A stretch of 64,000 bases of DNA from NCBI GenBank assembly GCA_963706765.1, contig OY970168.1, positions 2,886,700 to 2,950,699 on the forward strand, read 5' to 3'. The notes below the pieces were generated by a model that was not told the DNA's origin, searched no databases, and saw only the letters and a list, made by a program, of their open reading frames with translations. Each line of letters opens with the position of its first letter. Position 1 is the stretch's first letter. Positions 6,484-57,134 of the stretch are shown here, piece after piece. Position numbers and translations under genes: made by a program. This DNA is from an uncultured Solirubrobacterales bacterium. GTDB taxonomy: Bacteria > Actinomycetota > Thermoleophilia > Solirubrobacterales > Solirubrobacteraceae.

Positions 6484-6517
6484 CCGTTGCAGGATCGGCT
6501 CGCCCAGATGCGCCCGC

Positions 6518-8739: not shown

Positions 8740-8747
8740 GCACGCAA
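8730..8747. promoter_or_regulatory. Putative MarR autoregulatory operator
   Basis: TTGCTTGCA|TGCACGCAA, an 18-bp palindrome with one mismatched pair, centred on the marR ATG. Confidence 0.6.
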
Positions 8748-8882
8748 CTATATTCCGCAAGCAATCATTGCGCGTGTGAGATACATCACAGAAGCAGCCG
8801 GTCGGAGCGTTGCTGCGTCGCCGCTCCGTCCGCACCTCGCGAGCGCTCCTGATGGCAGGTCTGAGCGCCGGCTATTCGGGCG

Positions 8883-9938: not shown

Positions 9939-9972
9939 CTCGCTCGAGGATAGCCACGCTACCCTTCCGTCG

Positions 9973-19328: not shown

Positions 19329-19406
19329 AATAATTCCTCCTAAACGATTCGAAACGGACCGTTCGCACTGTACGCTATCCTGGCGAGCGTGTCAAGCACT
19401 CCGCGT

Positions 19407-21372: not shown

Positions 21373-21520
21373 GCAGCGCAGACGATAGTGGCGCGACCGC
21401 GCCGCGCCGCAATGGCAACGATCGCGGGCGGGCTGGCGGCAGTTCTTAGCCAGTTCTTCGCGCGAGCGCCTGCCGATCTGATGCGATTTACGGCCGTCAT
21501 CGAGAAACGGGAGGCACCAA

Positions 21521-35348: not shown

Positions 35349-35432
35349 GCGCGCGTGGTGGAATCGGTAGACACGCCGGCCTTAGGAGCCGGTGGGCGTA
35401 AGCCCATGGGGGTTCAAGTCCCTCCGCGCGCA
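35349..35432 (+). tRNA. tRNA-Leu(TAG)
   Basis: GCGCGCG acceptor, CCGGC-CTTAGGA-GCCGG anticodon arm, long variable arm, GGTTCAAGT; no encoded CCA. Confidence 0.95.
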
Positions 35433-35637: not shown

Positions 35638-37926
35638 CTATTCGCTGAAGTTGCTCGGTGGCGCGGTCACGCGCTCGAGTTTCCAGGTGGTGCTGGTCGG
35701 CGTCAGGAAGCTCGGCGGCTGTTTGTTGAGCAGCCGTTCGTCGTAGTTGTAGTTCTTTAGATAGCCGTGTCCGGCCGCGGTGCCGACAGGGCCACGCCAG
35801 TACTGCGCAATCGACCCCCACACGGTCAGTTTGCCTAGTTTTGCGCCGCACTGGTAGTTGTCGACGATGAACGAGTGGTGCGTGCTGAGGATCGCAGCGT
35901 CGATGATCGGTTCGCTCAGCGCGGTGCCAAGTTCGTTCGGGTCTCCGTTTTCCGCGTTTTCAGCGTCGCATTTCCCGGGTTTGTCTTCGTATTCGCATTT
36001 GCCTTCGCCGAGATACTGGTCGGAGTTGGCGCAAGCACCGCACTTTTTTTCGCTGGCGCTGAATTCGCTTTCTTTGCATTTCCCGCATTTGCCTTCTCCG
36101 AAGTACTGGTACCCGGCCGTGCAGCTCGTCTTGGCGCACTTTTTTTCACCAGACCGGTATTCGTAGCCCGATTCGCACGTTGTACTGATGCATTCTCCAG
36201 TTCCGGAGTTGAACGTGTATCCGCTGTTGCAGGTCGTGCTCAGGCATTTCTTGCTGCTTTCGATGTATTCATAACCGGTGTTGCATTTCGCACATTTGCC
36301 TTCGCCGAAATAGGTCGTCCCGGTCGCACACGAGGTTGAGCCGCACTTTTTTTCGCTCGAGATGTATTCATAACCGGTGTTGCATTTGGCGCATTTGCCT
36401 TCGCCGAAGTACGTGCCACTGGAGCACGTCTTGCTGTAGCAGGTGCCCCCGTACGATTCGTATTGGCTACTCGGGGAGCACGAGCCTTTGGATTTCGTCA
36501 CGGTCTGCGTCGACAGCGTCGGCGTCAGTCGTGTGGGCGGGGTTGAGGTCGAGAGCGTCGGTTCGACGCTCGTCGGGATGTAGCTGGCCGGATTCTTGGT
36601 TTCGCTGGGTGAGAGGGTGGGAAGATACGGAGTGGTCGTCAATTCGACTGGGTGATATAGCCGTACGAAGTTCGTCGCGATCAAGCCGAGCGTAGCCGCA
36701 CCTTCGGGTTCTCCAGCCGACGTACCGCCGACCGTCGTCGTCGTTATGTTGCCATTGATGATCACGTCGTTTTCAGCCGCTATCGTCAGCGATTCCGTGT
36801 ATGTCCCGCTGACGTAGACGTTTCCGCACCCCGTGTCGCCAGCGTAGTTCGAGTTGAACGGCGTGTAGGTGATGCCGCAGCCAATGGCAGAGTTGTTTGC
36901 GACGTAGATTATGCCGCTCGCGGGGAAGTTTTTCGTTTCCGGCGCGGACGCGCCAGCGCTGGTGAATTTGGTGATGGTGATCGTGTTCGGCGTACCGGAG
37001 TGAAGCACCAGCTCGGTCTTGCCAGTGAACGTGTAGCCCGCGATTTCCGAGAGTTCGCTGTCGGTTTCGGGGGGGTTGAGTTCTTCGCCATTTTCTGTGT
37101 ATACGCCATTGTTGTTGTAGCTGTTGCTGCAACCGCCTGCGGCGTAGGTGCCGCCATTGATTTCGATTTTGTCTTTTTTGCCGGGACGTCCGAATGTCGG
37201 TTTGGAGCCAGAAGTACCGCACACCTCGGAGGCGTCATCGGTGTGAAGCGGGCCTTTGACTTCGTCTTCGGACGCAAACTCGATCGGGATGCACCATTCC
37301 GACAGGTACTTTGTTTTGCCGTTGAAGGTGTATTTCGTCGTTTTACGCGTCGCGTAGAACTGTTCACACTCTGCCGTGGGCAGCGCTTCGGACGCTGGGA
37401 AGTCGGCTGGATCCTCGACCTCGTAGCGGGTGAAGTAGACGTAGTTGAGGAAACCGGGGTGATCGAACGTGGCCACGAGCGTGCGCGTCTCGTTGCCGGA
37501 GGTCCCGGTCGACTCGATGCGGAATGTGCCCGAAGCGGAGCTCGAGCTGCCCTCGATGATCGCGTACTGTTTCTTTTCCTTGCACTGGGCTTCGGTGTAG
37601 CCGGTCGAGTGCAGCGTCTTGACGGCGTAGCTCTCGTCGCTCGTCTGTGGTACGGCGGTTTTTTCGATCGCGGGGCACGAGGACCAGTAGTTCGGTTCCT
37701 TGTTGAGGTGGTACTTGTACGCCGAGATGCCAGCCAGCGCCGCGTAGTAGGCCTTCTTCTGTTCGGTATCTGTCTTGGTCAGGCGCACGTCGTCGTTCGT
37801 CGCGATGAAGATTGCGGCAACTATGAGAGAGGTGATGAACATGACCATCAGCGCGATGATCATCGTGAACCCGCGCTCGTCGCGGGCGCGGCGTCGGAGC
37901 CGATCGATTAGGCTTGTCATTCGCAT
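35638..37926 (-). CDS. PilX-like type IV minor pilin / pilus tip protein with Cys-rich insertion
   Basis: Class III signal RDERG|FTMIIALMVMF (no Glu5, typical of PilX), FRIESTG...RTLVATF alpha/beta region, C-terminal GSIAQYWRGPVG...YNYDERL. Confidence 0.85.
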   Translation of the reverse strand: MRMTSLIDRLRRRARDERGFTMIIALMVMFITSLIVAAIFIATNDDVRLTKTDTEQKKAYYAALAGISAYKYHLNKEPNYWSSCPAIEKTAVPQTSDESYAVKTLHSTGYTEAQCKEKKQYAIIEGSSSSASGTFRIESTGTSGNETRTLVATFDHPGFLNYVYFTRYEVEDPADFPASEALPTAECEQFYATRKTTKYTFNGKTKYLSEWCIPIEFASEDEVKGPLHTDDASEVCGTSGSKPTFGRPGKKDKIEINGGTYAAGGCSNSYNNNGVYTENGEELNPPETDSELSEIAGYTFTGKTELVLHSGTPNTITITKFTSAGASAPETKNFPASGIIYVANNSAIGCGITYTPFNSNYAGDTGCGNVYVSGTYTESLTIAAENDVIINGNITTTTVGGTSAGEPEGAATLGLIATNFVRLYHPVELTTTPYLPTLSPSETKNPASYIPTSVEPTLSTSTPPTRLTPTLSTQTVTKSKGSCSPSSQYESYGGTCYSKTCSSGTYFGEGKCAKCNTGYEYISSEKKCGSTSCATGTTYFGEGKCAKCNTGYEYIESSKKCLSTTCNSGYTFNSGTGECISTTCESGYEYRSGEKKCAKTSCTAGYQYFGEGKCGKCKESEFSASEKKCGACANSDQYLGEGKCEYEDKPGKCDAENAENGDPNELGTALSEPIIDAAILSTHHSFIVDNYQCGAKLGKLTVWGSIAQYWRGPVGTAAGHGYLKNYNYDERLLNKQPPSFLTPTSTTWKLERVTAPPSNFSE

Positions 37927-38750
37927 GGCAGATTCGCCGCTTCCGCTTCGGTGCTGGACGGGTCATAGCGCAGGACGACCGAGTCGCTGAAGGCGACGGT
38001 GCGGTCGGCGCGCGTATCGCTGCTGCTCGGCGCCTGGGTGAAGCTGATCGAGACCTTCGCGAGTTCGTTTGCCACCGTTTGGGCTTTTTCGGCGGTCGAC
38101 TGGCCCGAGGGCAGTTCGGTGCTCGACAGGGGGCCCACGAGCTGGCCGAAGGTGGAGCCGGAGGTGTGTTCGTAGCGGTAGTACTGGAAGATGGTGTCGG
38201 CGCTCGAGACCTGAGGGGCGATCACGTTCGTTGCGAGCACGTGGACGCTCGCGTTAGCCACCTTCGGTTCGGCGAATTTCCAGTTCGGCGCCGAGCCGCT
38301 GCCGGTGAATTGGTAGTCGGTGAGCGTGCCCAACCGCTGGCCGGTGTTGCTCGTTTCCGTGTAGGTCCAGTTGATGTCGTGCTCGGTCACGGCCGTAATG
38401 GCGGCGGCGCCTGCCGTGGAGTTCCCGTAGGCGCTCAGAAACCAGAGGTTCGTGGCGCCCGTCGCGGCGAGCGGAGAGGTGGGTTTTACGCTCGGGCCCT
38501 GGATTGCGTACGCGCCGAAGCCGGTGCAGCTGGAGTGAAGCGGGTCGATGATGCTGCTCATCGCCGAGCGGCCCACCTGGTTGGCTTGCGCCGCGTCGGT
38601 GATCCTGGTCTGTTGGCGCAGCGTGACGTCGAGGATCGCGAGCAGCGCGCCGGTGACGACGACGCCGGTCGTCATCGCGACCAGCAGTTCGATCATCGAG
38701 ATGCCCCGAGCGTCGCGGAGGCGGTGGACGATTCGCGAGAGGAGCGCCAT
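37917..38750 (-). CDS. PilW-like type IV minor pilin
   Basis: Class III signal RDARG|ISMIELLVAM with Glu5; ATG overlaps the upstream stop. Confidence 0.85.
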   Translation of the reverse strand: MALLSRIVHRLRDARGISMIELLVAMTTGVVVTGALLAILDVTLRQQTRITDAAQANQVGRSAMSSIIDPLHSSCTGFGAYAIQGPSVKPTSPLAATGATNLWFLSAYGNSTAGAAAITAVTEHDINWTYTETSNTGQRLGTLTDYQFTGSGSAPNWKFAEPKVANASVHVLATNVIAPQVSSADTIFQYYRYEHTSGSTFGQLVGPLSSTELPSGQSTAEKAQTVANELAKVSISFTQAPSSSDTRADRTVAFSDSVVLRYDPSSTEAEAANLPCE

Positions 38751-40366
38751 CAGCACGTCCCCGATTTGCCCGCGCCGAGGTAGATCACGCCGTAGCCTTC
38801 TTTGGTCGTCCCGCTCGTGCTCGGCTCGGTGCTCGGCCCGGCGCCGGTGTTGTTCGTGAATTTGAATGTGGCCTTTTTGCTCGAGCCGCTGATCATGCCG
38901 CTGACGCAGAGTTCCCATTCGCCGAACGGCTGGTTCTGGTATGTGAGGTGACCTTGAGGATTGAGAGGCTGGTAGTGGACGTAGGTGGGTGAGGGGTTGT
39001 TCACCGGCGCCTGTTCGCTGAGACACTTGGTGTTCGTCAGGGACGCGGTCCCTGAGGTGAGCACGACGCCTTCGTTGCCTGAACCCGCCGCGGTGCCCGT
39101 GTAGACGACTATCTTGACCGGTGGGACCACGAGCTTTTTGCTGGGTGCGACGGTGCTACCTGGGTTCACCTGGGCGGTCGGGTCGGAGTACGCTTCGCCC
39201 GTTTCCGTTTTGTATTCTTCGACATACTTGCTCTGCGAAGCGGGATCGTTGGCGACGCAATCGCCGGCATATGCCGTGTAGGGATTCGCTTCTGCAGGAG
39301 TTCCCGGCTTCACGAAGGGAAACAGCGTTTTGCTCGAGCTCACGGTGGTCAGGTAGTTGGCCGACGCCAGCGCCGCGGATGTGCTGACCGTGCCCTCGAG
39401 GTCGCGCGAGGGCGCCGCCGTCATGCCCGTCTGCAGCGCGACGAACGTCTCGCCAGGGCTGGGTGAGCCAACGCTCGAGAATTCCGCCGCGATCGCGCCC
39501 GGTTCGCCGATCTGGTAGGTCTTCGACGTCGTGGCTCCCGAAGACAGTTTCACGACATCGGAGCTCGGCGTTTTGCCGTTGACTTCGACCCACCCGGTTT
39601 TGGTTGCCAGGACGGTCACTTCGCTCGCTGCGATCGCCCCGAAGATGACGCATCCCGACGCTGGCGTGATCCGCGAAGGCAACCCTGTCGCGGTGACCGT
39701 TGCGCCCGCCACCGGTTCCTTGTTCTGGTTGATGACCTTCACCAGCAGGGCGCGTCCGATCGGGGCGCTGAGGATGCTCGATTGGCTCACGGGGGGACGG
39801 CTGCCGAGCGTCGGCCACGTGACCGACGAGGTCGTCTGGATGTAGTCGGCTGACCCGCTGCTGCTTTCGCAGGCGAGTGCGGCGCCGGTGGTGCTTTCCG
39901 AGGCGGTCACGTATTCGGCGGAGGAGCTGACCGTGTAGACGTTGCCGGTGTAAGCGACACCCGAGTAGCCGCTGTACTTGGCGTATTCGGTGGCCTTGCA
40001 CGGAGTCGCGGGTTCTTCGGCTTCTTTCGCTTCGAGCTGAGCCTTGGTCGAGTTGATGTAGCGCCAGCTGCTGCCCGACTTTTCGACGCACAGACCGTTT
40101 TCGGCGAGCGTGTGCGAGGAGCTGCCCATCTGGCCGAGCTGCGCCGCCGTGAGGCCGTGCAGGCGCTCCTCGTCCTGCTGTGCGATGACCGTCGCCTGGT
40201 TGTGCGCGCGCTCGTCGAAGGTGGTGCGATTGGTCGAGTCGATCCCGCTGAAGGTCGCCACGGCGATCAGCGCGACCAGCAGCGCGCTGATGATCACCTC
40301 GAGCAGCAGAACGCCGTCCTCGGAGGACGGCGGCGGTAGCCTTGAAATCAATGTCGCAATCATCAC
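38750..40366 (-). CDS. Large PilV-like type IV minor pilin with extended C-terminal beta domains
   Basis: SEDG|VLLLEVIISALLVALIA prepilin motif with Glu5; QQDEERL helix. Confidence 0.8.
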   Translation of the reverse strand: MMIATLISRLPPPSSEDGVLLLEVIISALLVALIAVATFSGIDSTNRTTFDERAHNQATVIAQQDEERLHGLTAAQLGQMGSSSHTLAENGLCVEKSGSSWRYINSTKAQLEAKEAEEPATPCKATEYAKYSGYSGVAYTGNVYTVSSSAEYVTASESTTGAALACESSSGSADYIQTTSSVTWPTLGSRPPVSQSSILSAPIGRALLVKVINQNKEPVAGATVTATGLPSRITPASGCVIFGAIAASEVTVLATKTGWVEVNGKTPSSDVVKLSSGATTSKTYQIGEPGAIAAEFSSVGSPSPGETFVALQTGMTAAPSRDLEGTVSTSAALASANYLTTVSSSKTLFPFVKPGTPAEANPYTAYAGDCVANDPASQSKYVEEYKTETGEAYSDPTAQVNPGSTVAPSKKLVVPPVKIVVYTGTAAGSGNEGVVLTSGTASLTNTKCLSEQAPVNNPSPTYVHYQPLNPQGHLTYQNQPFGEWELCVSGMISGSSKKATFKFTNNTGAGPSTEPSTSGTTKEGYGVIYLGAGKSGTC

Positions 40367-40678: not shown

Positions 40679-40749
40679 GGGGGACTGGTGTAGTGGTAAC
40701 ACGGCGGTCTCCAAAACCGCAACTCGAGGTTCGATTCCTCGGTCCCCCG
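40679..40749 (+). tRNA. tRNA-Trp(CCA)
   Basis: GGGGGAC/GTCCCCC acceptor, GCGGT-CTCCAAA-ACCGC anticodon arm, GGTTCGATT; no encoded CCA end. Confidence 0.95.
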
Positions 40750-44975: not shown

Positions 44976-45049
44976 GCCCCCGTAGCTCAGCTGGATAGAG
45001 CATCGGATTTCTAATCCGAGGGTCCCAGGTTCGAATCCTGGCGGGGGCG
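44976..45049 (+). tRNA. tRNA-Arg(TCT)
   Basis: GCCCCCG acceptor, TCGGA-TTTCTAA-TCCGA anticodon arm, GGTTCGAAT; no encoded CCA. Confidence 0.95.
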
Positions 45050-45147
45050 CTGAGGTCCGAACCGGGTCCGCGGACGTCGGCGGACGCCCGCGCTCCATCT
45101 CTGCGCGCGGGCGCTCCATCTCCGATTGCGCCTACTCTGCGAGCTTG

Positions 45148-46077
45148 ATGGGCGACCGTCCTGCAGAGCCGCGCGGCGATCAGATCCTCGAGGGCGAGAA
45201 CCTCGCGCTGCTGCCGCGGTTCAGCGACGGGCTGTTTCAGCTCGTGTACATCGACCCGCCCTTCAACACCGGCCGCCTGCAGTCGCGCAGGAGCATCAGC
45301 ACAGCGCGCGATGAGCGCGGCGATCGCACCGGGTTTCAGGGGCGCCGCTACAGCACCCGCCTGCTCGCCGAGTCCTCCTACCGAGACTCCTTCGACGACT
45401 ATCTCGCCTTTCTCGAGCCCCGCCTGCGCGAAGCCCGCAGGCTGCTGGGCCAGGAGGGGACGCTGTACTTCCACATCGACTACCGCGAGGCCCACTACTG
45501 CAAGCTCCTGCTCGATGAGATCTTCGGGCGCGAGTGCTTTCTGAACGAGATCGTCTGGGCATATGACTACGGGGCCCGCTCGAGCCGCCGCTGGCCGGCC
45601 AAGCACGACACGATCCTCGTCTACGTGCGCGATCCCGAACGCTACTGGTTCGACTCGAGCGCAGTCGATCGCGAGCCCTATATGGCGCCCGGTCTGGTGA
45701 CGCCCGAGAAGGCCGCCCGCGGCAAGCTCCCGACAGATGTCTGGTGGCACACGATCGTGCCGACCAACGGTCGCGAGAAGACCGGCTATCCGACGCAGAA
45801 GCCCGAGGGCATCGTCCGCCGGATGGTCCAGGCCTCGACACGGCCCGGCGACTGGTGCCTGGACTTCTTCGCCGGCAGCGGGACGCTGGGGGCGGTCGCT
45901 GCGCAGCTGGAACGCCACTTCGTCCTGATCGACTCCAGCCCCGAGGCGGTCGCAGTAATGCGCTCGCGCCTGACAGCCGAGCGCGATCAGCGGGACGGCG
46001 CGGACGCCGAGCGCGCGGGCGATCGCCAAGACGGCGCGGACGCCGAGCGCGCGTCCTCGCCGGGCGCCGCGGCCTGA
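45148..46077 (+). CDS. Site-specific DNA methyltransferase (N6A/N4C, beta order), no cognate nuclease nearby
   Basis: YIDPPF (motif IV) precedes YPTQKP and LDFFAGSGT (motif I). Confidence 0.93.
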   Translation: MGDRPAEPRGDQILEGENLALLPRFSDGLFQLVYIDPPFNTGRLQSRRSISTARDERGDRTGFQGRRYSTRLLAESSYRDSFDDYLAFLEPRLREARRLLGQEGTLYFHIDYREAHYCKLLLDEIFGRECFLNEIVWAYDYGARSSRRWPAKHDTILVYVRDPERYWFDSSAVDREPYMAPGLVTPEKAARGKLPTDVWWHTIVPTNGREKTGYPTQKPEGIVRRMVQASTRPGDWCLDFFAGSGTLGAVAAQLERHFVLIDSSPEAVAVMRSRLTAERDQRDGADAERAGDRQDGADAERASSPGAAA

Positions 46078-46128
46078 CCCGCAGACCCCGAGCGCCATGC
46101 AGCCTCGGGACATGGCAGCCTTCGACTC

Positions 46129-46650
46129 GTGTTCCACATCGAGCTGCGCCAGTTTCCGCACAACGCCTGGCGTTTCAACCTCAGCGAGGGCGAGCTGTTC
46201 GCGGCAGTGCTCGAGCCATGGCTGCGCGACCAATGGATCGAGCTCAGCGAACGCAAGTGGAAAGCCGACCAGGCGCGGCTGACGGTGCTCGAGGGACCGA
46301 GCCTCGCGGTGCAGCAGCTCTCGATGGGACGCGGCTGGCGAAACGCCGAGCGCGAGAGCACGGACGTCACCGAGCAGGTGATGGCGCAGGCGCGGGCACG
46401 CGTCGCCAGCGCCGGCGCGCAAGCACACGCCCTGGCGGGCCCGGGCCCGGGCCCGGGCGGGGCGAGCCCGCTCGCCGGCGGGCAGGCAGCCGGCGTGCAG
46501 GAGGAGGTGAGGCGAGCGCTGATCATGCTCCTCGGCAACGATCCCGAGGCGCTTCTGCAGGCCTGGCAGCTCGCTGCAGGTCGGCGTCCCGAGCTCTCTC
46601 CGAGCGAGTGTCTCGCGCTCGCCGAAAGAACGCTCCGATCGCTCGGTTGA
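46129..46650 (+). CDS. Hypothetical protein
   Basis: Protein-like ORF between the MTase and tRNA-His (HIELRQFPHNAWRFNLS...). Confidence 0.7.
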   Translation: MFHIELRQFPHNAWRFNLSEGELFAAVLEPWLRDQWIELSERKWKADQARLTVLEGPSLAVQQLSMGRGWRNAERESTDVTEQVMAQARARVASAGAQAHALAGPGPGPGGASPLAGGQAAGVQEEVRRALIMLLGNDPEALLQAWQLAAGRRPELSPSECLALAERTLRSLG

Positions 46651-46688
46651 GCGCGCTGGGGCGCCGCTAGACTCCGACTGCGTCACGT

Positions 46689-46762
46689 GGTGGGCGTAGC
46701 TCAGCTGGTAGAGCTCCTGGTTGTGGTCCAGGCGGTCGGGGGTTCGAGTCCCCTCGCTCACC
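46689..46762 (+). tRNA. tRNA-His(GTG)
   Basis: G-1:C73 pair, GTGGGCG/CGCTCAC acceptor, CCTGG-TTGTGGT-CCAGG anticodon arm; no encoded CCA. Confidence 0.95.
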
Positions 46763-47830: not shown

Positions 47831-48442
47831 GTGCTCGCCGCCGAGATCGCGCCGGGTCTCTGGCGCTGGACCGCCCCCCATCCGGAGTGGGTTGAGACGA
47901 CGGAGGGCGGCAGCGCTGGGGAATGGGACGAGCTGGTCGGCTCGGTGCTCTACGAGCTCGAGGACCGCGTCGCGCTGATCGATCCACTGCTGCCGGTGGC
48001 GCGGCGCGAGCAGTTCCTGAACTGGCTCGACGAGCGCATCGGCGGACGCCCGGTGGGAATCCTCACGACGGTGCGCTGGCATCGGCGCGATCGTGAGCTG
48101 CTCGCCGAGCGCTACCGCACGATCACCCCCGGCGCGTGGAATGCAGTCCCCGCCGGGGTCAAACCGGTGCCGCTGCGGGGAGCCGGGGAGACCGTCTACT
48201 GGCTCGAGCGCGTCGACAGCCTGGTGGTGGGCGACTGTCTGTTGGGCGCTCCCGAGGGCGGCCTGCGGCTGTGTCCCGAGAGCTGGCTGAACGACGTCGC
48301 GGTCGACCGGGCGGGGCTCGCGCATCTCTTGGGGCGACTGCTCGAGCTGCCGATCGAGTGCGTGCTGGTCTCGCACGGGGACCCCGTTCTGCACGACGGA
48401 CGGGCGGCGCTTGCGCGGGCGATCGCGCAGGCGCGCAGATGA
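47831..48442 (+). CDS. Hypothetical protein, degenerate metallo-beta-lactamase-like fold
   Basis: LIDPLLP, TVRWHRRD, VVGDCL and VLVSHG pattern. Confidence 0.6.
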   Translation: MLAAEIAPGLWRWTAPHPEWVETTEGGSAGEWDELVGSVLYELEDRVALIDPLLPVARREQFLNWLDERIGGRPVGILTTVRWHRRDRELLAERYRTITPGAWNAVPAGVKPVPLRGAGETVYWLERVDSLVVGDCLLGAPEGGLRLCPESWLNDVAVDRAGLAHLLGRLLELPIECVLVSHGDPVLHDGRAALARAIAQARR

Positions 48443-48555: not shown

Positions 48556-49140
48556 ATGGCGGCGAAGAAGCACAAGAGCGCCTCGCTGGTCGAGGGGAGA
48601 TCGCCGGTGAAGGCGGCGACTCTCGCCGTGCTTCTCGAAGGCCCCACCTATGGCTATGAGGTCGCCAAGCGCATCAACCGCCGCATGGGCTCCTCCTGGC
48701 ACGTCCAGCAGAAGCACATCTACACGGTGCTCAAACAGCTCGAAGACGCCGGCCTCGTGCGCTCCGAGCGGCGCTCGATCGACGACCCGCCCTACTGGCG
48801 GCGGTTCTATCACCCGACCGAGGAGGCCATCCGCGCGCGTCGCGAATGGCTCGTGACGCCGCCCGCGGGCAGCGTGTTGCGCGCCGACATCCATGCGAGG
48901 CTCGCGTTCTCCTGCGACGAGGACATCCCCGAGCTGTTGCGGGCGCTTCAGGAATGGCGCGTGGAGCTGCTCGGCGAGATCGAGAACAACGCCGCGACCG
49001 AGACGCCACGAGTGTCCTGGCTCGGGACCATCATGAGCCTCTACAGGTCTGCGGTCGACAAGCGTCTGAAGGCTGAAGTCGAGTGGGTGGGGGAGGCCTG
49101 CCGGACGCTCGAAGAGGTGGCGGCCGAGCAGCGACGATGA
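48556..49140 (+). CDS. PadR family transcriptional regulator
   Basis: GGAGG RBS; LLEGPTYGYEV, HIYTVLKQLEDAGLV, RRFYHPT. Confidence 0.88.
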   Translation: MAAKKHKSASLVEGRSPVKAATLAVLLEGPTYGYEVAKRINRRMGSSWHVQQKHIYTVLKQLEDAGLVRSERRSIDDPPYWRRFYHPTEEAIRARREWLVTPPAGSVLRADIHARLAFSCDEDIPELLRALQEWRVELLGEIENNAATETPRVSWLGTIMSLYRSAVDKRLKAEVEWVGEACRTLEEVAAEQRR

Positions 49141-49892
49141 TGAGCTCGCTGCAGTTTCGCGACGTCACCAAGCGCTTCCTCGACGGCCGCTGGGACGTGC
49201 CCGTGCTCGACTCGGTGTCCTTCGAGCTGGACCGTGGAGAGACGCTCGGCGTGCTCGCCTCGCGAGGCGCGGGCAAGACGACGCTGCTGCGAGTCGCAGC
49301 GGGCCTCGAGGTTCCCGATCAGGGCGAGGTCTGCTGGCAGGGTCGCGATCTGGTCGCGATGAGCGCCGACGAGCGCGCACGTGCGCGACGTCGCGGAGGG
49401 ATCGCGCTGGCGAGCGGCGATTGGCGGGCGGGCGACTCGATCGCGGTTGTCGAGCACGTGGCGATGCCGCTCTACAGCGAAGGCCTGAGCATGAAGCGCG
49501 CGCTCGCCGGCGCCCGGCGGTCGCTGCAGCTGGTCCAGACCCCCGGTCTCGGCTACCTGCCCACGGCACGACTCGGACTGGTCGAGCGAGTACGTGTGGA
49601 GCTCGCGCGCGCGCTCGTGCGCGAGCCCGCGCTGCTGCTGGTCGACGAGCCGGCGGTGCTGCCACAGCCCAAGGACTCCGAGGCCTTCCACGCCCTGCTG
49701 CATTCGCTGCCCGGCGAGCTCGGGATCACGCTGATGATCGCCTCGGAGGAGGTCTCGGCGCTGCGCGGATCGAGTCGCGTGATGAACCTCGATGGCGGGC
49801 GGATGCACACGACCGACTCCTTGCACAAGGTCATCGACTTCGCCCAGCGACGGGCACGCTCCGGCCGGGGCAAGAGCACCGACGCGCTGTGA
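49137..49892 (+). CDS. ABC ATP-binding protein (LolD/MacB-like) with degenerate motifs
   Basis: Walker A variant ASRGAGKT, Walker B LLLVDEP; signature reads LGLVE and H-loop reads ASEE. Confidence 0.85.
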   Translation: MMSSLQFRDVTKRFLDGRWDVPVLDSVSFELDRGETLGVLASRGAGKTTLLRVAAGLEVPDQGEVCWQGRDLVAMSADERARARRRGGIALASGDWRAGDSIAVVEHVAMPLYSEGLSMKRALAGARRSLQLVQTPGLGYLPTARLGLVERVRVELARALVREPALLLVDEPAVLPQPKDSEAFHALLHSLPGELGITLMIASEEVSALRGSSRVMNLDGGRMHTTDSLHKVIDFAQRRARSGRGKSTDAL

Positions 49893-50593
49893 CGCTCGAG
49901 CTGCGCGAGGTCTGCAAGCGCTACGCGAGCGCCGGCGAGACGGTCGCCGCGGTAGATGGCGTCTCGCTGCAGGTTGCCCCTGGCCAGTTCGTCGCGATCT
50001 ACGGACCGAGCGGATCGGGAAAGACGACCCTGCTGCAGCTCGCCGCCGCGATCATGGGTCCGGACGACGGACAGGTGCTGTTCGACGGCCGCTGCGTCAG
50101 CGACCTGGCGGGGCGTGAATCGGCGCGCTACCGGCGCGAGCACGTCGGCGTCGTGTTCCAGTCCTTTCACCTGATCGGCGGCGCATCCGCGCTCGAGAAC
50201 GCAGCGATGAAGCTGCTCGCGCTCGGGATGACGCTGCGCGACGCGACCGCCGCCGCGCGGCCATGGCTCGAGCGGATGGGACTCGGCGAGCGCCTCGGCC
50301 ATGCCGCAACCGAGCTCTCGATGGGGGAGCGCCAGCGGGTTGCGATCGCGCGGGCGTTGGCAAACGAGCCCCGCCTGCTGCTGGCGGACGAGCCGACGGG
50401 CAACCTCGACTCCCAGCGCAGCCGCGAGATCCTGGCCCTGCTCGCGGAGGTCTGCTGCGCTCGCACGATCCCGGTGCTGCTCGTGACCCACGACCCGCAG
50501 GCGTCGGCGTATGTCGATCGGACCTACACGCTGCGCGACGGCCGGCTCAGCGACGGTCTCGACCTGGAGCTCAGGGCGACGCTCGCGCGATGA
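49889..50593 (+). CDS. ABC ATP-binding protein (LolD/MacB-like), intact
   Basis: GPSGSGKTT, LSMGERQR, LLADEPTGNLD, VTHD. Confidence 0.95.
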   Translation: MTLELREVCKRYASAGETVAAVDGVSLQVAPGQFVAIYGPSGSGKTTLLQLAAAIMGPDDGQVLFDGRCVSDLAGRESARYRREHVGVVFQSFHLIGGASALENAAMKLLALGMTLRDATAAARPWLERMGLGERLGHAATELSMGERQRVAIARALANEPRLLLADEPTGNLDSQRSREILALLAEVCCARTIPVLLVTHDPQASAYVDRTYTLRDGRLSDGLDLELRATLAR

Positions 50594-53151
50594 GGGCCCG
50601 GCTGAACCCGCTCGTCTTCGGCGTACGCGCGAGCGTGCTGCTCGGTTTCTACCGCCAGCGCCTGCGCGACCATGCCGTCGCCGAGCTGCTCGCGGGCAGC
50701 GGCATCGCGATCGGCGTCGCGCTCGTGTTCGGCGTTCTCGTCGCCAACGGCAGCATCGTCGGCTCGGTGCGCGAAGACGTCCATGCGGTCGAGGGCGCGG
50801 CGGCGATCGAGTTCAGCTCGCGCTCGCCCGCGGGCTTCAGCGAAGGGTTGGCCGTCCGCTTGGGAAGGCTCGCAGGCGTCGCGGGCGCGGCGCCGCTACT
50901 GCGCGACACCGCGGTCGTCGAGGGTCCCAAGGGCCGCCGGCGGGTTCAGTTCGTGGGCGTCAGCGCCGCGCTCGTGCGGATCGGCGGGTCTGCCACCGGA
51001 AACCTCGGCGCCGGCGCACTGCTGCTCGCGGGAGGCGTCGGCCTGCCTTCGGGTGTCGCCGAAGCTGTCGGTGTGCACGCGCGCGGGCGGGTGACGATCG
51101 CAGTCGAAGGCGTGAGCACTACGACCAGGGTGCGCGTGGCTCTCGGCAGCGGCGCGATCGGGCCGCTCGCGATGGTGCCGATCGCGGTCGCGCGGCTGCG
51201 CTACGCGCAGACGCTCGCCCGCGAGCGCGGACGCGTCAACGACGTGCTCGTTCGTCCTCGCCCGGGTCGCTATCTCCAGGTCGTCGGCGAGCTGCGCGCC
51301 CTAGCGGGCAACACGGTCGATGTCGTCCCGGCTGAAAGCGAACTGCACCTGGCCGAGACCGCTGCACGGCCGGTCGGCCAGTCGACCTCGCTGTTCGTCG
51401 CGATCGCTGCGATGGTCGGGTTCCTGCTCGCCCTCAACGCGATGCTGCTGACGGTGCCCGAGCGCCGGCGGGCGATGGCGGACATGCGCATCCAGGGCTA
51501 CGACTCGAGACAGGTGCTGACGATCCTGATCTCGCAAGCGCTGCTGCTGGGAGTCGGCGCCTCCTGCGCGGGCATCGTCGCCGGGGACCTGCTGGCGCGG
51601 ACGCTGTTTCACGACGTGCCGAGCTATCTGACGACGGTGTTCCCGATCACCGGCCATCAGACGATCAGTTCCGGGACGGTCCTGTTGGCGCTGGGGTGCG
51701 GCGTGGCGGCGTCGCTGCTCGCCTCGCTGGCGCCGGTCTTCGATCTGCGCGCGAGCCGGCCGATCGATGCGGTGATGCACGAATCGGGCGAACCGGGCCA
51801 GAGCATCGGCAGCCGCACCACGCTCGGCGCGGCGCTCGCCGGGATCGTGATGCTGGTCGCGGTGAGCGTGGCCGTCGCGCTCGACCTGGGCCTGACGATC
51901 GTCGGCGGAGTGATGCTCGCGTTCGCAGCTCTGTGCATGATCCCGCTGCTGTTTCGCGCCACCACTCGCCTGCTGAGGCTGTTCGCGTCTCGCTACCACG
52001 GCGGCATGGTGGCGGTCGCGACGATCGAACTCAGCGCCACCGCGACGCGCGCGGTCGCGCTCGCGGGCGTCGCGGCGCTGGCCGTCTACGGGTCTGTAGC
52101 TGTCGGCGGCGCCAGGCACGACCTGCTCACCGGTCTCGACCGCGCGATCGTCCAGGAATGGGGAGCGGCCCCTGTCTGGGTGACTCCGGACAGCAACATC
52201 TTCGACGTCGACAGCTTCCGGCTGCTCGGTGGCCGCGAACCGCTGCGCGCCGCGCGCGCCGATGTCGCTGCCGTCGGGGAGCATCAGGGAGCGTTCCTGG
52301 ACATCGGCGATCACCGCCTGTGGATCCGCGCGGTCCCGCCGAGCAGCGCGATGATCCTCTCGAGCCAGCTCCTCAATGGCGACCTCAGGCACGCCACCGC
52401 GCTGCTGCGAGGCGGAGGCTGGGCGACAGTCTCCAGGGGCTTTGCCACCGAACACGGCCTGCGCCTGGGGAGCCGATTCACGCTGCCAACACCGTCCGGA
52501 ACGGCGAGCTTTCGCGTCGCTGCGCTGACCACCAACATCGGCTGGCCGTCGGGCACCATCACCATCAACAGCGCTGACTACAGCCGCGACTGGCAGATCG
52601 ACACACCCACTGCGCTGTCGCTGACGCTGAAGCCAGGCGTCAGCGCGAACGCCGGCAGGTCCGCGGTCGCGGCCGCGCTGCGCGATCAGCCGAGCCTGCG
52701 TGTGCAGACCGATACGCAGCGCATCGCCGAGGTGCAGAGCACTGTCCACCAGGGCCTGCGCACGCTCAGCGAGATATCGACACTGCTGCTGATCACCGCC
52801 GCGCTCGCGCTCGCGGCGGCACTGTCGACGGCGATTCACCAACGTCGCGTCCGGCTGGCGTCGCTGAAAGCGCAGGGATTCGACCAGCTGCAGCTCTGGC
52901 GAAGCCTGCTGCTCGAGGGTGCAGTCGTGCTCGGCATCGGCTGCATCGACGGCGCGCTGTTCGGGGCCTACGGACATGCTCTCGCAGACCGCTATCTGCG
53001 TCTCGGCGCCGGCTTCCCAGCGCCATTCTCGCTCGGGGGGGCGCAGATCGCGGTCACGCTGCTGCTCGTGCTCGGGATCGCGTTGACCGTCCTCGCACTG
53101 CCGGGCTACTCCGCCGCCGGCGTCTCACCACGAGCGAGCTTCCAAGAGTAA
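50590..53151 (+). CDS. FtsX/MacB-like double-domain ABC permease
   Basis: Two repeats of TM + extracytoplasmic domain + 3 TM, each with the ERRR...LR/KxxG motif. Confidence 0.9.
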   Translation: MRARLNPLVFGVRASVLLGFYRQRLRDHAVAELLAGSGIAIGVALVFGVLVANGSIVGSVREDVHAVEGAAAIEFSSRSPAGFSEGLAVRLGRLAGVAGAAPLLRDTAVVEGPKGRRRVQFVGVSAALVRIGGSATGNLGAGALLLAGGVGLPSGVAEAVGVHARGRVTIAVEGVSTTTRVRVALGSGAIGPLAMVPIAVARLRYAQTLARERGRVNDVLVRPRPGRYLQVVGELRALAGNTVDVVPAESELHLAETAARPVGQSTSLFVAIAAMVGFLLALNAMLLTVPERRRAMADMRIQGYDSRQVLTILISQALLLGVGASCAGIVAGDLLARTLFHDVPSYLTTVFPITGHQTISSGTVLLALGCGVAASLLASLAPVFDLRASRPIDAVMHESGEPGQSIGSRTTLGAALAGIVMLVAVSVAVALDLGLTIVGGVMLAFAALCMIPLLFRATTRLLRLFASRYHGGMVAVATIELSATATRAVALAGVAALAVYGSVAVGGARHDLLTGLDRAIVQEWGAAPVWVTPDSNIFDVDSFRLLGGREPLRAARADVAAVGEHQGAFLDIGDHRLWIRAVPPSSAMILSSQLLNGDLRHATALLRGGGWATVSRGFATEHGLRLGSRFTLPTPSGTASFRVAALTTNIGWPSGTITINSADYSRDWQIDTPTALSLTLKPGVSANAGRSAVAAALRDQPSLRVQTDTQRIAEVQSTVHQGLRTLSEISTLLLITAALALAAALSTAIHQRRVRLASLKAQGFDQLQLWRSLLLEGAVVLGIGCIDGALFGAYGHALADRYLRLGAGFPAPFSLGGAQIAVTLLLVLGIALTVLALPGYSAAGVSPRASFQE

Positions 53152-53164
53152 TGCCGCACGGCGG

Positions 53165-54391
53165 TTGCGGTTCTGCGTGGAATGCAACGCGCTATCCGGT
53201 CTGCACCCTCAGCACAACCAGCAGCTTCGGCTGGCGGGTGCGTTCGCTCTCGCGGCGCGCCGTTACTGGCTGGGCGTCCTGCCCGTCGCGCGCTGTGAGC
53301 TTCGCCGGCTGAGGGCGCGAGCGCTTCGGATCCCCGACCACAGCTTGCGGCGGCTCGCGCTGCAGGTGTATGACGGCGACTGGGCGAGCCTCGAGGGGAC
53401 CGCCGCGTTCGCCGCCTTCACTCCGCGCCACCGTCGCGCGGCGGTCGTGCGGCTGCTGGTACGGCTGCAGAGCATCTACCAGTACACCGACACCGTCATG
53501 GAGCAGCCGAACGAGAGCCCGGCCGCCAACGCCCGCCAGCTGCACGTCGCGCTGGTGCTCGCGCTGCAGCCGGGGCGCGGTCACCCCGACTACTACAGGC
53601 ACTGCGCCCAGCCCGACGACGGGGGCTATCTCGCCGAGCTGGTGGACCTCTGCCGAGCCGAGCTGGCAGGACTGCCCTCATATCCTGCCGTCGCCGATGC
53701 GGCGCTCGCCGGCGCGCGGCGGATCGTCTTCTACCAGAGCGCCATCAACCTCGCACGGACCGCCGATCACGACAACCTCGCACGGACCGCCGATCACGAC
53801 GCCCTTGCGCGGTGGGCCGAGCGCGAGGGCGCGCACGCGAGCGGCCACCGCTGGTGGGAGGTGGCGGCGGCCGCGGGCTCGTCGCTTGCGACGCTCGCCC
53901 TGCTCGGCGCGGCCGGGCGCCCGGGCGTGACTCGCGAGCGCGCACAGGTGATCGAGGGCGTCTACTGGCCGTGGGTCGGCGCGCTGCACACGCTGCTCGA
54001 CAGTCTCGTCGATCACTCCGAGGACGCACTCACCGGGCAGCACAACCTGCTCGACCACTACTCCTCCCCGCAGGAGATGGTGCAGCGGATGGGACGGCTC
54101 GCGGTCGAGTCTCGCGTGCGCGCGGGCGTCGCGGGCACCGAGCACCGGTTGATCCTGGCCGGCGTCACGAGCCTGTATCTGTCAGAGCCCGAGGCCTGGG
54201 TCCCCTACGCTCGCGCAACCACCGAACGCGTGCTCGCCGCGATGGGTGGGCTCGCGATGCCCGCGATGCTGATGCTCCGGGGGCGTCGGCTGGCACACCG
54301 AATGGCCCGTGGCGTCTGTGTTGGCGACGGCGCTGCCGAGCGCTTTGGGGCGGCTGATGCCCGCGAGCGGACCGATGTGGGTATCCGATAG
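53165..54391 (+). CDS. DUF2600 / YtpB-like (tetraprenyl-beta-curcumene synthase family) terpene cyclase; start uncertain
   Basis: SLEG, DYY...DDGGYLAELV, WWEVAAAAGSSL, YWPWVGALHTLLDSLVDHSED and LYLSE match my recollection of B. subtilis YtpB blocks. Confidence 0.8.
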   Translation: MRFCVECNALSGLHPQHNQQLRLAGAFALAARRYWLGVLPVARCELRRLRARALRIPDHSLRRLALQVYDGDWASLEGTAAFAAFTPRHRRAAVVRLLVRLQSIYQYTDTVMEQPNESPAANARQLHVALVLALQPGRGHPDYYRHCAQPDDGGYLAELVDLCRAELAGLPSYPAVADAALAGARRIVFYQSAINLARTADHDNLARTADHDALARWAEREGAHASGHRWWEVAAAAGSSLATLALLGAAGRPGVTRERAQVIEGVYWPWVGALHTLLDSLVDHSEDALTGQHNLLDHYSSPQEMVQRMGRLAVESRVRAGVAGTEHRLILAGVTSLYLSEPEAWVPYARATTERVLAAMGGLAMPAMLMLRGRRLAHRMARGVCVGDGAAERFGAADARERTDVGIR

Positions 54392-54597
54392 GGGACTAGT
54401 CCCTTCGCGGTCTTTTCGCGGTGGCCTGTGAACGTCACCATTCACGCGGGTGACAGAGCTCGCTCACGTCGTCTCTCGCCAGGCTCCGCGGGGGCCAAAG
54501 GGCGATCGGACGTGAGCTTGGCCCTGTCCCCGTCTAGACCAATGCACGGCCGGGTGCTACCCCACAGCACCCGGCCCGTTATACATCAGCATTGGCT

Positions 54598-55473
54598 GTG
54601 AGCAACGAGGGAAAACAGGTGCCGAGAAGCGCGACCCGTCGTGGCGCCGGCAGCGCCCACAAGGCGCCGCCGCCGTTCATGCTGGAAGACCCCCGCTACT
54701 CGCAGTCGGTGGAGCGCGGGCTCGCGATCCTGGCGACGTTCGAGGCGCCGCACCCGGACCTTGGCATCGCGGACATCGCCGACGCGCTCGGGCTCAGCCG
54801 CTCGACGACCCATCGCTATGTCTCGACGCTTCTCGCGCTCGGGTATCTGGAGCAGCAGAGCGACCGCAAGTACAGGCTCTCGGTGCGAGTCAGCGATCTC
54901 GGCATGGCGGCGCTGAACGCCACCGGCCTGCGCGAGCACGCCCATCCGGTGCTCGAGGAGCTGCGCAGACAGCTCTCCTGCCACGCGGCGATGGCTGTGC
55001 TCGACGGCATCGAGATCGTCTACGTCGATCGAGTCCGCAGCTTCAAGCGCGGCTACTTCCAGGTCGAGACCGGCCTGCAGCCCGGATCGCGACTGCCGGC
55101 CTACTGCACCGCGATGGGCAAGCTGCTGCTTGCCCACCTGCCGGAGGCCGAGCGCAACCAGGCGCTCGTCGAGATGCGCCTGAGCAGGCATGGGCCGAAC
55201 ACGATCACGCGCAAGAGCGAGCTCCGCGCGCAGCTGGAGCGAGTGCTCGATGCGGGCATCGCGGTCGACAACGAGGAGATGACCCCGGGCCTCGTGGCGA
55301 TCGCCGCCCCGGTTCGCGACGGCTCCTCCAGTCTGGTTGCTGCGATCGATCTCAGCACCCGCAGCTCGATGATCCGCGCGCAGGACCTCGCGGACGTGCT
55401 CGGACCGCGTCTGCTGATCGCCGCCAAACGCATCTCAGTGGAGCTCGGCTACCGCGGCGATGAGCCCCATTGA
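54598..55473 (+). CDS. IclR family transcriptional regulator (PcaR/PobR-like)
   Basis: SQSVERGLAIL, LSRSTTHR HTH, GSRLPAYCTAMGK, GLVAIAAPV. Confidence 0.95.
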   Translation: MSNEGKQVPRSATRRGAGSAHKAPPPFMLEDPRYSQSVERGLAILATFEAPHPDLGIADIADALGLSRSTTHRYVSTLLALGYLEQQSDRKYRLSVRVSDLGMAALNATGLREHAHPVLEELRRQLSCHAAMAVLDGIEIVYVDRVRSFKRGYFQVETGLQPGSRLPAYCTAMGKLLLAHLPEAERNQALVEMRLSRHGPNTITRKSELRAQLERVLDAGIAVDNEEMTPGLVAIAAPVRDGSSSLVAAIDLSTRSSMIRAQDLADVLGPRLLIAAKRISVELGYRGDEPH

Positions 55474-55488
55474 GCACGCTCTGACCGC

Positions 55489-56313
55489 GTGAGCCTGCTG
55501 CCCGACTACTCGCGCCAGGCCGAGACCTATGACTGCACGCGCTCGGCGAGCCCCTCGGTGCTCGCTCCGGTGCGCGCCGCGCTCGCCGGGGCGCCGGGAC
55601 CGCTGCTCGCAGACGTCGGCGGCGGCACCGGCAACTACGCCGCGGCCCTTCGCAGCGAGGGCTGGCAGCCGCTCGTGATCGACCGCTCGGCGCAGATGCT
55701 CGCTCGAGCTCACGCCAAGGGCCTTCCGACGTTGCTCGCCGATGCCCAGCAGCTGCCGCTCGCGGACAGCAGCTTCGACGCGCTGATGCTGGTGTCGATG
55801 CTCCATCACGTCGAGCGACCCGCCGCGGCCCTGACCGAGGCCGTGCGCGTGCTGCGCCCGAGGGGTGCTCTTGCGCTGATGCTGTTCACGCGCGAGGACG
55901 TCGATGACCTGTGGGTGCTCGAATACTTCCCATCGACTCGCGACTGGCTGCTGAGCACCCACCCGCGGCTGCAGGATCTGCTCGCGCTGCTGCCGGGCGC
56001 ACGCCGCGAAGCGGTCACGTTCGCCGACCTCCAGGACGCCTCACTGGCTGCGCTCTGCTCCCATCCCGAGAAGCTGCTCGAAGGGCGCTGGCGCACGCAG
56101 ACCAGCTACTTCGAGCGCCTCGCCCGCGATCATCCCGCCGAGCTGGAGCAGGGCCTCGAACGTCTCGCGCACGACCTGCAGGAGGGCCTCGCTCCCACGA
56201 GGCCCGGCCGGGCGTCGGTGCTCTCGTGGCGAAAGCCCCAGCTCTCACCGAGCACCTCGAGCTGTTCGCGTGGCTGTCGGTGCCGCTGCGGCGCGGGTAG
56301 CCTGCGCCCATGA
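55489..56313 (+). CDS. Class I SAM-dependent methyltransferase
   Basis: LADVGGGTG, LPLADSSFDA, LHHV, VLRPRG. Confidence 0.9.
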   Translation: MSLLPDYSRQAETYDCTRSASPSVLAPVRAALAGAPGPLLADVGGGTGNYAAALRSEGWQPLVIDRSAQMLARAHAKGLPTLLADAQQLPLADSSFDALMLVSMLHHVERPAAALTEAVRVLRPRGALALMLFTREDVDDLWVLEYFPSTRDWLLSTHPRLQDLLALLPGARREAVTFADLQDASLAALCSHPEKLLEGRWRTQTSYFERLARDHPAELEQGLERLAHDLQEGLAPTRPGRASVLSWRKPQLSPSTSSCSRGCRCRCGAGSLRP

Positions 56314-57134
56314 GCGATCCTCGCGGCGACGACGCCTCGGCCGACCCCGCGGCGCCCACCGGCGCGGGCGCACAGGCCGCCGATCTCGGCGGGGCTGGCA
56401 AGGGCCTCCGCTCAGCGGCCCAAGTGGCCCTGGTGACGGGAGCCAGCGGTGGGATCGGCGCCGCGATCTGCCGCGCGCTCGCCCCCAGCGTCGGAGCGCT
56501 GGCGATCGCCTATCGAGACGGCGCGCACGCCGCCGAGAGCCTGGCCGCGGAGATCGAGGCGGCCGGTACGCGGGCTTGCACGTTCGCGGCCGACATGGCG
56601 GACGCCGACGCTCCGGTGAGGCTCGTCGACGAGGTCGAGCAGCGACTCGGGCCGCCCGCGATCATGGTCGCCGCGCATGGCATCGCCAAGCAGGTCTCCT
56701 ACGAGCAGCTCGACGTCGACGCGTTCGACCGCACGGTCGCGATCAACCTGCGCGCGCCCTTCCTGCTCGCCCAGCGGGTGCTCGGGTCGATGCGCGAGCA
56801 GCGCTTCGGGCGGATCCTGTTCATCTCCTCGACCGCAGCGCTGCGCGGCGGAATGATCGGTCCCGACTACGCGGCGTCCAAGTCCGGGCTGCACGGGCTC
56901 GCGCACTTCCTGGCGGCGCGCGTGGCAGCCGACGGGGTGACCGTCAACGTGCTCGCGCCCGGATACGTTCAGACGGCAATGCTGCCCGGCGATCCCGCCG
57001 AGCTCGGAGCGCGGGTCCCGGCAGGGCGCGTGGGTCAACCGGACGAGATCGCAGACTTCGCGGTGGCGATCCTGCGCAACGGCTTTCTGACGAGCAAGGT
57101 GCTGACGATCGACGGCGGCATTCATCCACGCTGA
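56310..57134 (+). CDS. SDR family oxidoreductase (FabG-like)
   Basis: TGASGGIG, YAASK, NVLAPG. Confidence 0.92.
   Translation: MSDPRGDDASADPAAPTGAGAQAADLGGAGKGLRSAAQVALVTGASGGIGAAICRALAPSVGALAIAYRDGAHAAESLAAEIEAAGTRACTFAADMADADAPVRLVDEVEQRLGPPAIMVAAHGIAKQVSYEQLDVDAFDRTVAINLRAPFLLAQRVLGSMREQRFGRILFISSTAALRGGMIGPDYAASKSGLHGLAHFLAARVAADGVTVNVLAPGYVQTAMLPGDPAELGARVPAGRVGQPDEIADFAVAILRNGFLTSKVLTIDGGIHPR

Follow-up and report, generated by a model that had tools for sequence, protein, structure and literature searches.

What does a homologue of the Bacillus terpene synthase YtpB do when its gene directly follows those of an ATP-binding cassette (ABC) transporter? The question is raised by eight genes at 48556-57134 of a 64,000-nucleotide stretch of high-GC DNA (~70%; hereafter the window, meaning the whole 64 kb), whose nearest relatives are uncultured Solirubrobacterales (Thermoleophilia, Actinomycetota). 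A preliminary description had read these genes as a single operon for the synthesis, possible tailoring and export of a terpenoid. Here, we find that a smaller unit, composed of a PadR regulator, two ATPases, an FtsX permease and the YtpB-like protein (family DUF2600), recurs in most of the Solirubrobacterales loci surveyed, and we examine what such a combination may do in the cell.

The conserved cassette and its recurrence

All eight open reading frames (ORFs) lie on the + strand with coding-type GC at third codon positions (GC3, 0.82-0.88), and Pfam and NCBIfam profiles confirmed the family that had been named for each of them. The PadR gene (48556-49140; PF03551, 6.6e-12) is followed by ATPase1 (49137-49892; ABC_tran, 2.3e-18), ATPase2 (49889-50593; ABC_tran, 7e-33; LolD/FtsE/MacB-like in NCBIfam), a permease of 853 amino acids (aa) (50590-53151; FtsX twice, 2.7e-22) and the DUF2600 gene (53165-54391). 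For the latter, a hidden Markov model (HMM) search gave PF10776 at 1.8e-65 and 221 bits for a cut-off of 25, in support of the proposed YtpB-like identity. The three 4-nt overlaps that had been described can be read directly from the sequence, as ATGA between PadR and ATPase1 (49137-49140), GTGA between the two ATPases (49889-49892) and ATGA between ATPase2 and the permease (50590-50593), and so can the 13-nt gap between the permease stop at 53151 and the TTG start of the DUF2600 gene at 53165. The public gene call places this start 12 nt later, at GTG 53177, leaving a 25-nt gap and a 404-aa product.

Downstream, a gap of 200 nt separates the DUF2600 gene from an IclR regulator (54592-55473; HTH_IclR; IclR_C 4e-40; PcaR/PobR-like), which precedes by 15 nt a class I S-adenosylmethionine (SAM)-dependent methyltransferase (55489-56313; Methyltransf_11, 1.8e-21), itself overlapping by 4 nt a short-chain dehydrogenase/reductase (SDR) (56310-57134; adh_short, 1.8e-44). 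Because of the 200-nt gap, these last three genes probably form a second transcription unit with IclR as its first gene. Scans for promoter and terminator consensus sequences between 47.6 and 57.6 kb returned nothing that exceeds shuffled expectation.

To define which of these genes belong together, we scanned one genome per species, which yielded at least 488 DUF2600-encoding loci, and analysed the best 80, all of them from Solirubrobacterales metagenome-assembled genomes (MAGs). Gene order was counted in the 72 loci that have at least 5 kb of upstream flank. An FtsX permease lies within 7 kb of the DUF2600 gene in 71 of the 72, and the exact order PadR-ATPase1-ATPase2-FtsX-DUF2600 is found in 66, down to 43% DUF2600 identity; PadR likewise holds the first position of the cassette in 66 of the 72. 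Moreover, the identities of DUF2600 and of the permease to their window counterparts co-vary across the loci (Spearman 0.79). Unbiased clustering of the ORFs of the loci and of the window flanks left only the five core families as widely conserved. The linkage of DUF2600 with PadR, the ATPases and FtsX that had been expected to recur is thus borne out by the neighbourhood survey, and this part of the proposed terpenoid operon stands; its extent does not, as the conserved unit comprises five genes, or six with IclR, and not eight.

The IclR regulator accompanies the cassette often but not always. Of the 80 loci, 51 have an IclR-type helix-turn-helix (HTH) gene no more than 2.5 kb downstream of DUF2600; 32 of these 51 genes are full length, and 17 encode an orthologue at least 50% identical to the window protein, so that the suggested IclR linkage holds in part. 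The tailoring role given to the methyltransferase and the SDR fared less well. When the 80 loci were searched by tblastn (E <= 1e-5, >50% coverage), no orthologue of either gene was found adjoining DUF2600, and only three weak, distant matches at 28-30% identity were obtained (L013, L072 and L079). We therefore set both genes aside as local neighbours of the system. In two other loci, L048 and L035 (~7000-10000), the permease gene gives fragmentary tblastn matches only, with no runs of N; assembly errors in long reads may have introduced frameshifts there, or the genes may be pseudogenes.

The linkage also persists in divergent cassettes, in which the genes are arranged differently. Three loci (L068, L075 and L077) have the order DUF2600-ATPase-FtsX, and a large second family of paralogues that we call type 2 (~32% identity) has a single ATPase in the order ATPase-FtsX-DUF2600, with a permease of 840 aa. 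In the four genomes looked up (L081-L084, ~1-7000 in each), type-2 cassettes lie without exception beside hopanoid-type genes: a radical SAM protein with DUF3463, LPG_synthase_TM, a short IclR-HTH gene and an enoyl-CoA hydratase flank all four, and genes for PNP_UDP_1, an amine oxidase and SQS_PSY are seen further out wherever the fetched flank extends far enough.

To assess breadth beyond the order, 1.84 billion cluster representatives were searched in full by HMM, giving 1568 DUF2600 clusters (E <= 1e-3), and nine contigs were looked up. Four 50%-identity clusters are fusions of DUF2600 to a cytochrome P450. Among the three fusion genes looked up (L085, 6716-9184; L086, 3392-5803; L087, 4657-6897), two stand in ABC-FtsX cassettes, and both of these, which we inspected, have intact P450 signatures. 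In L085, the order is PadR-like, degenerate ATPase, ATPase, FtsX, fusion and IclR, and in L086 it is ATPase, FtsX, fusion and IclR. The IclR of L085 is 52% identical to that of the window while its DUF2600 part is just 31% identical. The third fusion, in L087, has a P450 part that appears frameshifted and no ABC genes; the methyltransferase and SDR genes near it are not homologous to those of the window. The five-gene order is found again in L089, at 39% identity, and remote PadR-like proteins hold the PadR position in both L085 and L089. In L088 (36% identity), DUF2600 is the last gene of an operon in which an MMPL lipid exporter replaces the ABC system. This operon (868-9128), located between ribosomal-protein operons, encodes a 914-aa unknown protein, the MMPL transporter, two secreted proteins and DUF2600; a homologue of the 914-aa protein is encoded upstream of the L070 cassette. 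Finally, in a Clostridia MAG (L090, 8001-10029), the DUF2600 gene is convergent with an adjacent polyprenyl synthase gene, which is split into two ORFs; an ABC gene and two FtsX genes nearby appear to come from an iron uptake operon of the FTR1/P19 type and were left out of the linkage counts. The existence of several distinct arrangements suggests that the linkage reflects more than the shared descent of one locus.

The enzyme, the transporter and the regulators

The PF10776 match of the window protein spans profile positions 1-318 of 328, and a profile built from 20 homologues matches BalTS (PDB 5YO8) at E 7.7e-67. The AlphaFold2 model is all-alpha and of high scores (predicted local distance difference test, pLDDT, 88.4; predicted template modelling score, pTM, 0.87), and Foldseek aligned it to 6loo_A with a TMt of 0.88 and a root-mean-square deviation (rmsd) of 2.4 Å, the ranges over 6loo_A and 5yo8 being 0.88-0.89 and 2.4-2.7 Å. 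By Pfam family, HMM match and fold, the DUF2600 protein is therefore a clear homologue of the class IB terpene synthases. It shares PF10776 and the alpha-helical class I fold with three characterised relatives, YtpB of B. subtilis (BsuTS, tetraprenyl-beta-curcumene synthase), BalTS of B. alcalophilus (5YO8/6LOO) and BclTS of B. clausii, and has in common with the BalTS family a motif 2 of the form DxxxDxxED, the central Asp of motif 1, the Gly of the G-helix kink and a soluble character without transmembrane (TM) segments. It differs from the Bacillus synthases by its low identity (~25%) and by its motif 1, which reads QYTDTVME instead of DYLDNLxD.

The strict Bacillus form of motif 1, with its three Asp, is thus replaced in the window protein: the first Asp is a Gln and the third a Glu, and the central one is retained. 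In motif 2 (DSLVDHSED), all four acidic positions of the pattern DY(F,L,W)IDxxED are present, with S-L in place of the aromatic positions Y(F/L/W). We compared the acidic positions of both motifs across two sets, 120 close homologues and 153 sequences that represent clusters at 50% identity. In both sets the central Asp of motif 1 never varies, and the motif ends with Glu in more than 97% of the sequences, while the first position varies between D, N and Q across the branch, with Q in the subclade of the window. All close homologues have the three Asp of motif 2, and 147-152 of the 153 representatives retain them; overall, four catalytic Asp and one Glu show essentially no variation. The motif 1 pattern looks like a stably conserved variant of this branch and not like decay, which argues for a working diphosphate-binding site.

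Hydropathy analysis revealed no TM or other hydrophobic segment in the DUF2600 protein. Since, in addition, its alignment with BalTS begins near the N-terminus, the protein should be cytoplasmic. The term cyclase, used in the preliminary description, would be premature. Indeed, the products of BalTS and BclTS are acyclic beta-prenes, and ring formation by BsuTS depends on a C-terminal extension (PMC5939612), the region of which is not conserved in the window protein according to the homologue alignment. The DUF2600 gene also carries a perfect 27-bp in-frame tandem duplication (53746-53800, +; Tandem Repeats Finder: period 27, 2.0 copies, 100%), which encodes NLARTADHD twice and maps to a surface loop modelled with low confidence (~aa 193-203). 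This insertion is absent from 19 of 19 aligned homologues and unique to this genome, and is probably a recent slippage event. The genomic partner of the gene also sets it apart from Bacillus: it is an ABC transporter here and ytpA there. We looked for an operon of the ytpAB type and dismissed it, as no ytpA alpha/beta-hydrolase gene adjoins DUF2600 in the window or in the 80 loci.

The two ATPases of the transporter differ markedly. ATPase2 has all the expected motifs (GPSGSGKTT, Q-loop, an LSMGE signature, DEPTGNLD and THD), invariant in 68 sequences (the window and 67 orthologues), and it scores best in NCBIfam against LolD (203 bits), FtsE and the MacB nucleotide-binding domain. ATPase1 keeps the Walker A GK(T/S)T and the Walker B DEP, has no Q-loop Gln, reads RLGLVER and not LSGGQ at its signature and ASEE, without His, at its H-loop; its NCBIfam scores are well under those of ATPase2. 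These degenerate motifs (RLGLxER signature) are conserved in 67 sequences (the window and 66 orthologues). Judged from these motifs, the transporter is asymmetric, with one canonical and one degenerate ATPase.

Hydropathy and the AlphaFold2 model (pLDDT 68, pTM 0.61) agree on ten predicted TM helices in the permease, with two extracytoplasmic domains (ECDs) of the Porter/Sabre type (~aa 69-249 and 527-707) between TM1-2 and TM7-8. A sequence-only search of the PDB with the permease produced marginal matches to LolC and LolE only. It was the fold search that placed E. coli YbbP first (9ge6_A, E 1.9e-19, TMq 0.55), followed by LolE, BceB, MacB and HrtB, and MacB_PCD (PF12704) is recorded in homologues of the permease. 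We consider with moderate confidence, as the model allows, that it is a type VII permease (MacB/FtsX superfamily) of YbbP-like architecture. Among its most conserved stretches is a motif of the second ECD, VAALTTNIGWPSGTI (aa 643-657), the conservation of which would fit a functional site outside the cell.

A close parallel to the cassette is the E. coli YbbAP-TesA system (PDB 9GE6-9GE8), which has the same ten TM helices, MacB-like domains between TM1-2 and TM7-8 and an ATPase of the LolD/MacB type, and in which the transporter gene is also linked to the gene of a lipid-processing enzyme. The likeness has limits: the permeases are ~15% identical, the regulators differ, and the YbbA homodimer contrasts with two different ATPases here, one of them degenerate. 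Moreover, TesA is periplasmic and acts after extraction, whereas the DUF2600 protein, predicted to be cytoplasmic, would act before it, and no TesA-type hydrolase is encoded in the cassette. LolCDE offers a second comparison, since the two halves of the permease can each be aligned with LolE or LolC, and ATPase2 is most similar to LolD. Unlike LolCDE, however, the system has a fused permease and heterodimeric ATPases, comes from a host classified as Gram-positive and is accompanied by no LolA-like gene; we rejected membership of the LolCDE family at 41.6 bits for lolCE (cut-off 362) and 203 bits for LolD (cut-off 308).

No SGNH/TesA-like or other secreted protein gene was found in or beside the window cassette. 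Two ORFs upstream of it (47831-48442 and 46129-46650) were considered as secreted partners and discarded, as both lack a signal peptide and neither has a homologue in the related loci. In ~20 related loci, DUF2600-ABC cassettes of several lineages are accompanied by a recurrent pair of secreted proteins (~165 aa and ~265 aa), both of which carry a signal peptide and match no Pfam family (for example L063, 3872-5157; L085, 600-1781 and 16708-17954; L051, 8589-9846; L075, 14618-15853). Absent from the window, this pair could be the missing extracytoplasmic partner.

Concerning the regulators, the PadR protein (~194 aa; alternative start GTG 48541) is composed of a winged HTH (aa 23-89) and a C-terminal domain, scores 45.7 bits against PF03551 for a cut-off of 27, and has PadR 5x11 and AphA as closest solved relatives. 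We found no conserved inverted-repeat operator, that is, no shared motif upstream of 67 PadR genes. The IclR protein matches TIGR02431 at 210 bits, below the cut-off of that family.

Proposed function and its alternatives

We favour, at a probability of about 0.55, a function in which a C25-C35 terpenoid is synthesised at the inner face of the membrane and then extracted by the YbbP-like transporter at the expense of ATP. The cytoplasmic enzyme would bind an all-trans long-chain polyprenyl diphosphate through Mg2+ held by the acidic motifs (D/Q)YxDxxxE and DxxxDxxED, and ionisation of the diphosphate would yield a very hydrophobic C25-C35 hydrocarbon, acyclic or monocyclic. This product would partition into the membrane, from the outer leaflet of which the type VII transporter, one ten-TM permease driven by the canonical and degenerate ATPase pair, would extract it by mechanotransmission towards the envelope or the medium. 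LolCDE works in this manner, as mechanotransmission extracts lipid-anchored cargo from the outer leaflet. PadR probably keeps the operon repressed as long as no hydrophobic ligand or membrane signal is perceived, and IclR may provide a frequent second control.

The most likely substrate would be heptaprenyl diphosphate (C35), drawn from the menaquinone-7 (MK-7) pathway. As stated in the preliminary description, the window encodes no prenyl synthase: no polyprenyl synthase domain was found in any plausible ORF of the whole 64 kb. MK-7(H4) is the main quinone of cultured Solirubrobacter species (PMC10722151); if the same is true of the host, heptaprenyl diphosphate would be available and the operon would need no prenyl synthase of its own. 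On the transport side, YbbAP-TesA has been proposed to extract hydrophobic compounds from the membrane and to pass them to the attached hydrolase (PMC12646458). The P450 fusions, the hopanoid neighbourhoods and the exchange of one exporter family for another are also what is expected of a biosynthetic terpene synthase with a lipid product that needs transport. Gene clusters that combine membrane terpenoid or lipid synthesis with a dedicated transporter exist elsewhere, as for the hopanoid transporter HpnN and the mycobacterial MmpL proteins, which belong to the proton-driven RND/MMPL transporters. The cassette resembles them in this combination, and an MMPL protein indeed stands beside DUF2600 in L088, but its own transporter is an ATP-driven type VII ABC system.

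Several points weigh against this proposal. BalTS lost its activity when any one of its six Asp was mutated (PMC5939612), and the first Asp of motif 1 is a Gln in the subclade of the window and the third a Glu. The known physiological phenotype of the B. subtilis homologue is antibiotic tolerance and not export. Type VII ABC systems usually have an extracytoplasmic partner, and none is conserved in the window; the permease model is of moderate confidence only (pLDDT 68); and our search for public sequencing runs carrying the locus returned none. Finally, the linkage data come from one order and from unclassified metagenome contigs of similar GC, and the top 120 matches of three homologue searches are all Solirubrobacteraceae-type proteins.

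This last point leads to one of the alternatives, that the genes are merely co-inherited within one order without functional coupling. All of the 80 loci being from Solirubrobacterales, counts from related genomes are not independent events, and shared descent inflates them. Nonetheless, the linkage is kept at 30-40% protein identity, in differing gene orders and surroundings, and with and without PadR and ATPase1, and the translational coupling by 4-nt overlaps is itself conserved, which makes mere co-inheritance highly improbable. The main rival, more conceivable if still unlikely, is that the cassette protects the envelope against stress or antibiotics: a BceAB-like transporter would shield lipid-II-cycle intermediates, PadR would sense the drug or the damage, and the DUF2600 enzyme would consume heptaprenyl diphosphate, the accumulation of which would sensitise cells to drugs that bind polyprenyl diphosphates. 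Several paralogous cassettes are found per genome, as several Bce-type paralogues are in Bacillus, and in both cases an FtsX-family ten-TM transporter and a DUF2600 enzyme can be tied to polyprenyl diphosphates and envelope stress. When B. subtilis loses ytpB and its MenA activity is limited, heptaprenyl diphosphate accumulates and the cells become more sensitive to bacitracin; cell-wall antibiotics induce ytpAB, which also shows genetic interactions with bceAB and bcrC (PMC7038271; bioRxiv 10.1101/2024.01.17.576085; PMC5939612). The permease also has the ten-TM topology of BceB (PMC12646458), which is among its Foldseek matches. However, BceB has one extracytoplasmic domain (TM7-8) where the permease has two, and neither a BceRS-like two-component system nor an undecaprenyl diphosphate phosphatase is encoded in or near the cassette. 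On these grounds, and with no histidine kinase or response regulator nearby, the regulators being PadR and IclR, we did not retain a BceAB-type assignment for the transporter. In Bacillus, bceAB and ytpB are moreover unlinked and separately regulated (by BceRS and sigma-M), whereas here a single operon stands under PadR. A later B. subtilis study also found that heptaprenyl diphosphate accumulates without effect on BceAB activity (PMC7038271), and the P450 fusions, the hopanoid adjacency and the MMPL exporter of sister cassettes suggest that a product is made and not only a precursor removed.

The terpenoid might, alternatively, remain in the membrane as a hopanoid-like modulator, the ABC transporter redistributing lipid between the leaflets or moving another cargo, such as a lipoprotein, a peptide or a cell-wall enzyme that depends on that lipid. 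This is consistent with the description of the C35 terpenoids of B. subtilis as membrane-localised (bioRxiv 10.1101/2024.01.17.576085), with the hopanoid genes adjoining type-2 cassettes, with the very diverse tasks of type VII ABC systems (FtsEX, LolCDE, HrtBA) and with the recurrence of the secreted pair near ~20 cassettes. But no alternative cargo gene is conserved among the clustered loci, the tight coupling of the genes (13-37 nt or overlaps) is kept through rearrangements, and the ABC transporter gives way to an MMPL lipid exporter in L088, which suggests that lipid export is the common denominator. We consider homeostasis without export improbable.

A more specific form of the proposed synthesis and extraction can be imagined, in which the degenerate ATPase docks the synthase onto the transporter, so that the C35 terpenoid is expelled from the membrane as soon as it has been made there; the secreted pair would then take charge of it in many relatives, and the product would form an outer layer or a signal specific to Solirubrobacterales. 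This is quite unlikely as a whole. If true, type VII ABC transporters would gain a new biological role, and large terpenes, for the first time outside Bacillus, a defined physiological one.

Other features of the window and significance

Outside the cassette, the window contains a gene for an RPE65-family carotenoid cleavage oxygenase (17892-19328, -), divergent from a second PadR gene (19389-19901, with a Vir_act_alpha_C domain); with the cassette, the window thereby has two instances of a PadR gene paired with an isoprenoid-related one. F420 biosynthesis genes are found at 15621-17858 and 20692-21585, for a radical-SAM protein and a CofC-like guanylyltransferase; the former has two Radical_SAM stretches and a CofH/MqnC C-terminal domain, and is possibly FbiC-like. 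On the - strand, at 35638-40366, ORFs of 762, 369 and 538 aa without Pfam match and with a somewhat atypical codon-position GC sit between the tRNA genes at 35349-35432 and 40679-40749, a region that may be a mobile or lineage-specific island. Nearer to the cassette (44976-46762, ~1.8 kb upstream), two tRNA genes surround an N6/N4 DNA methylase gene (45145-46077) and an unknown ORF; in L013, L014 and L017, a methylase 77-80% identical to it is likewise encoded close to the cassette.

Full-text literature searches, of incomplete coverage, turned up no earlier account of a DUF2600-ABC cassette in actinobacteria. Each of the component families has been described before; their conserved association, the asymmetry of the ATPase pair and the use of a cytoplasmic enzyme as partner of the transporter are new. 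Class IB large-terpene synthases have been characterised in a few Bacillus species only, and their physiological role is still debated, while the role of YbbP-like type VII ABC transporters is known essentially from E. coli alone. An operon that joins both, a natural example of an asymmetric type VII ABC transporter, provides a concrete hypothesis for each of them, in hundreds of genomes of an abundant and little-studied soil order, and points to an unexplored C25-C35 terpenoid chemistry in Actinomycetota.

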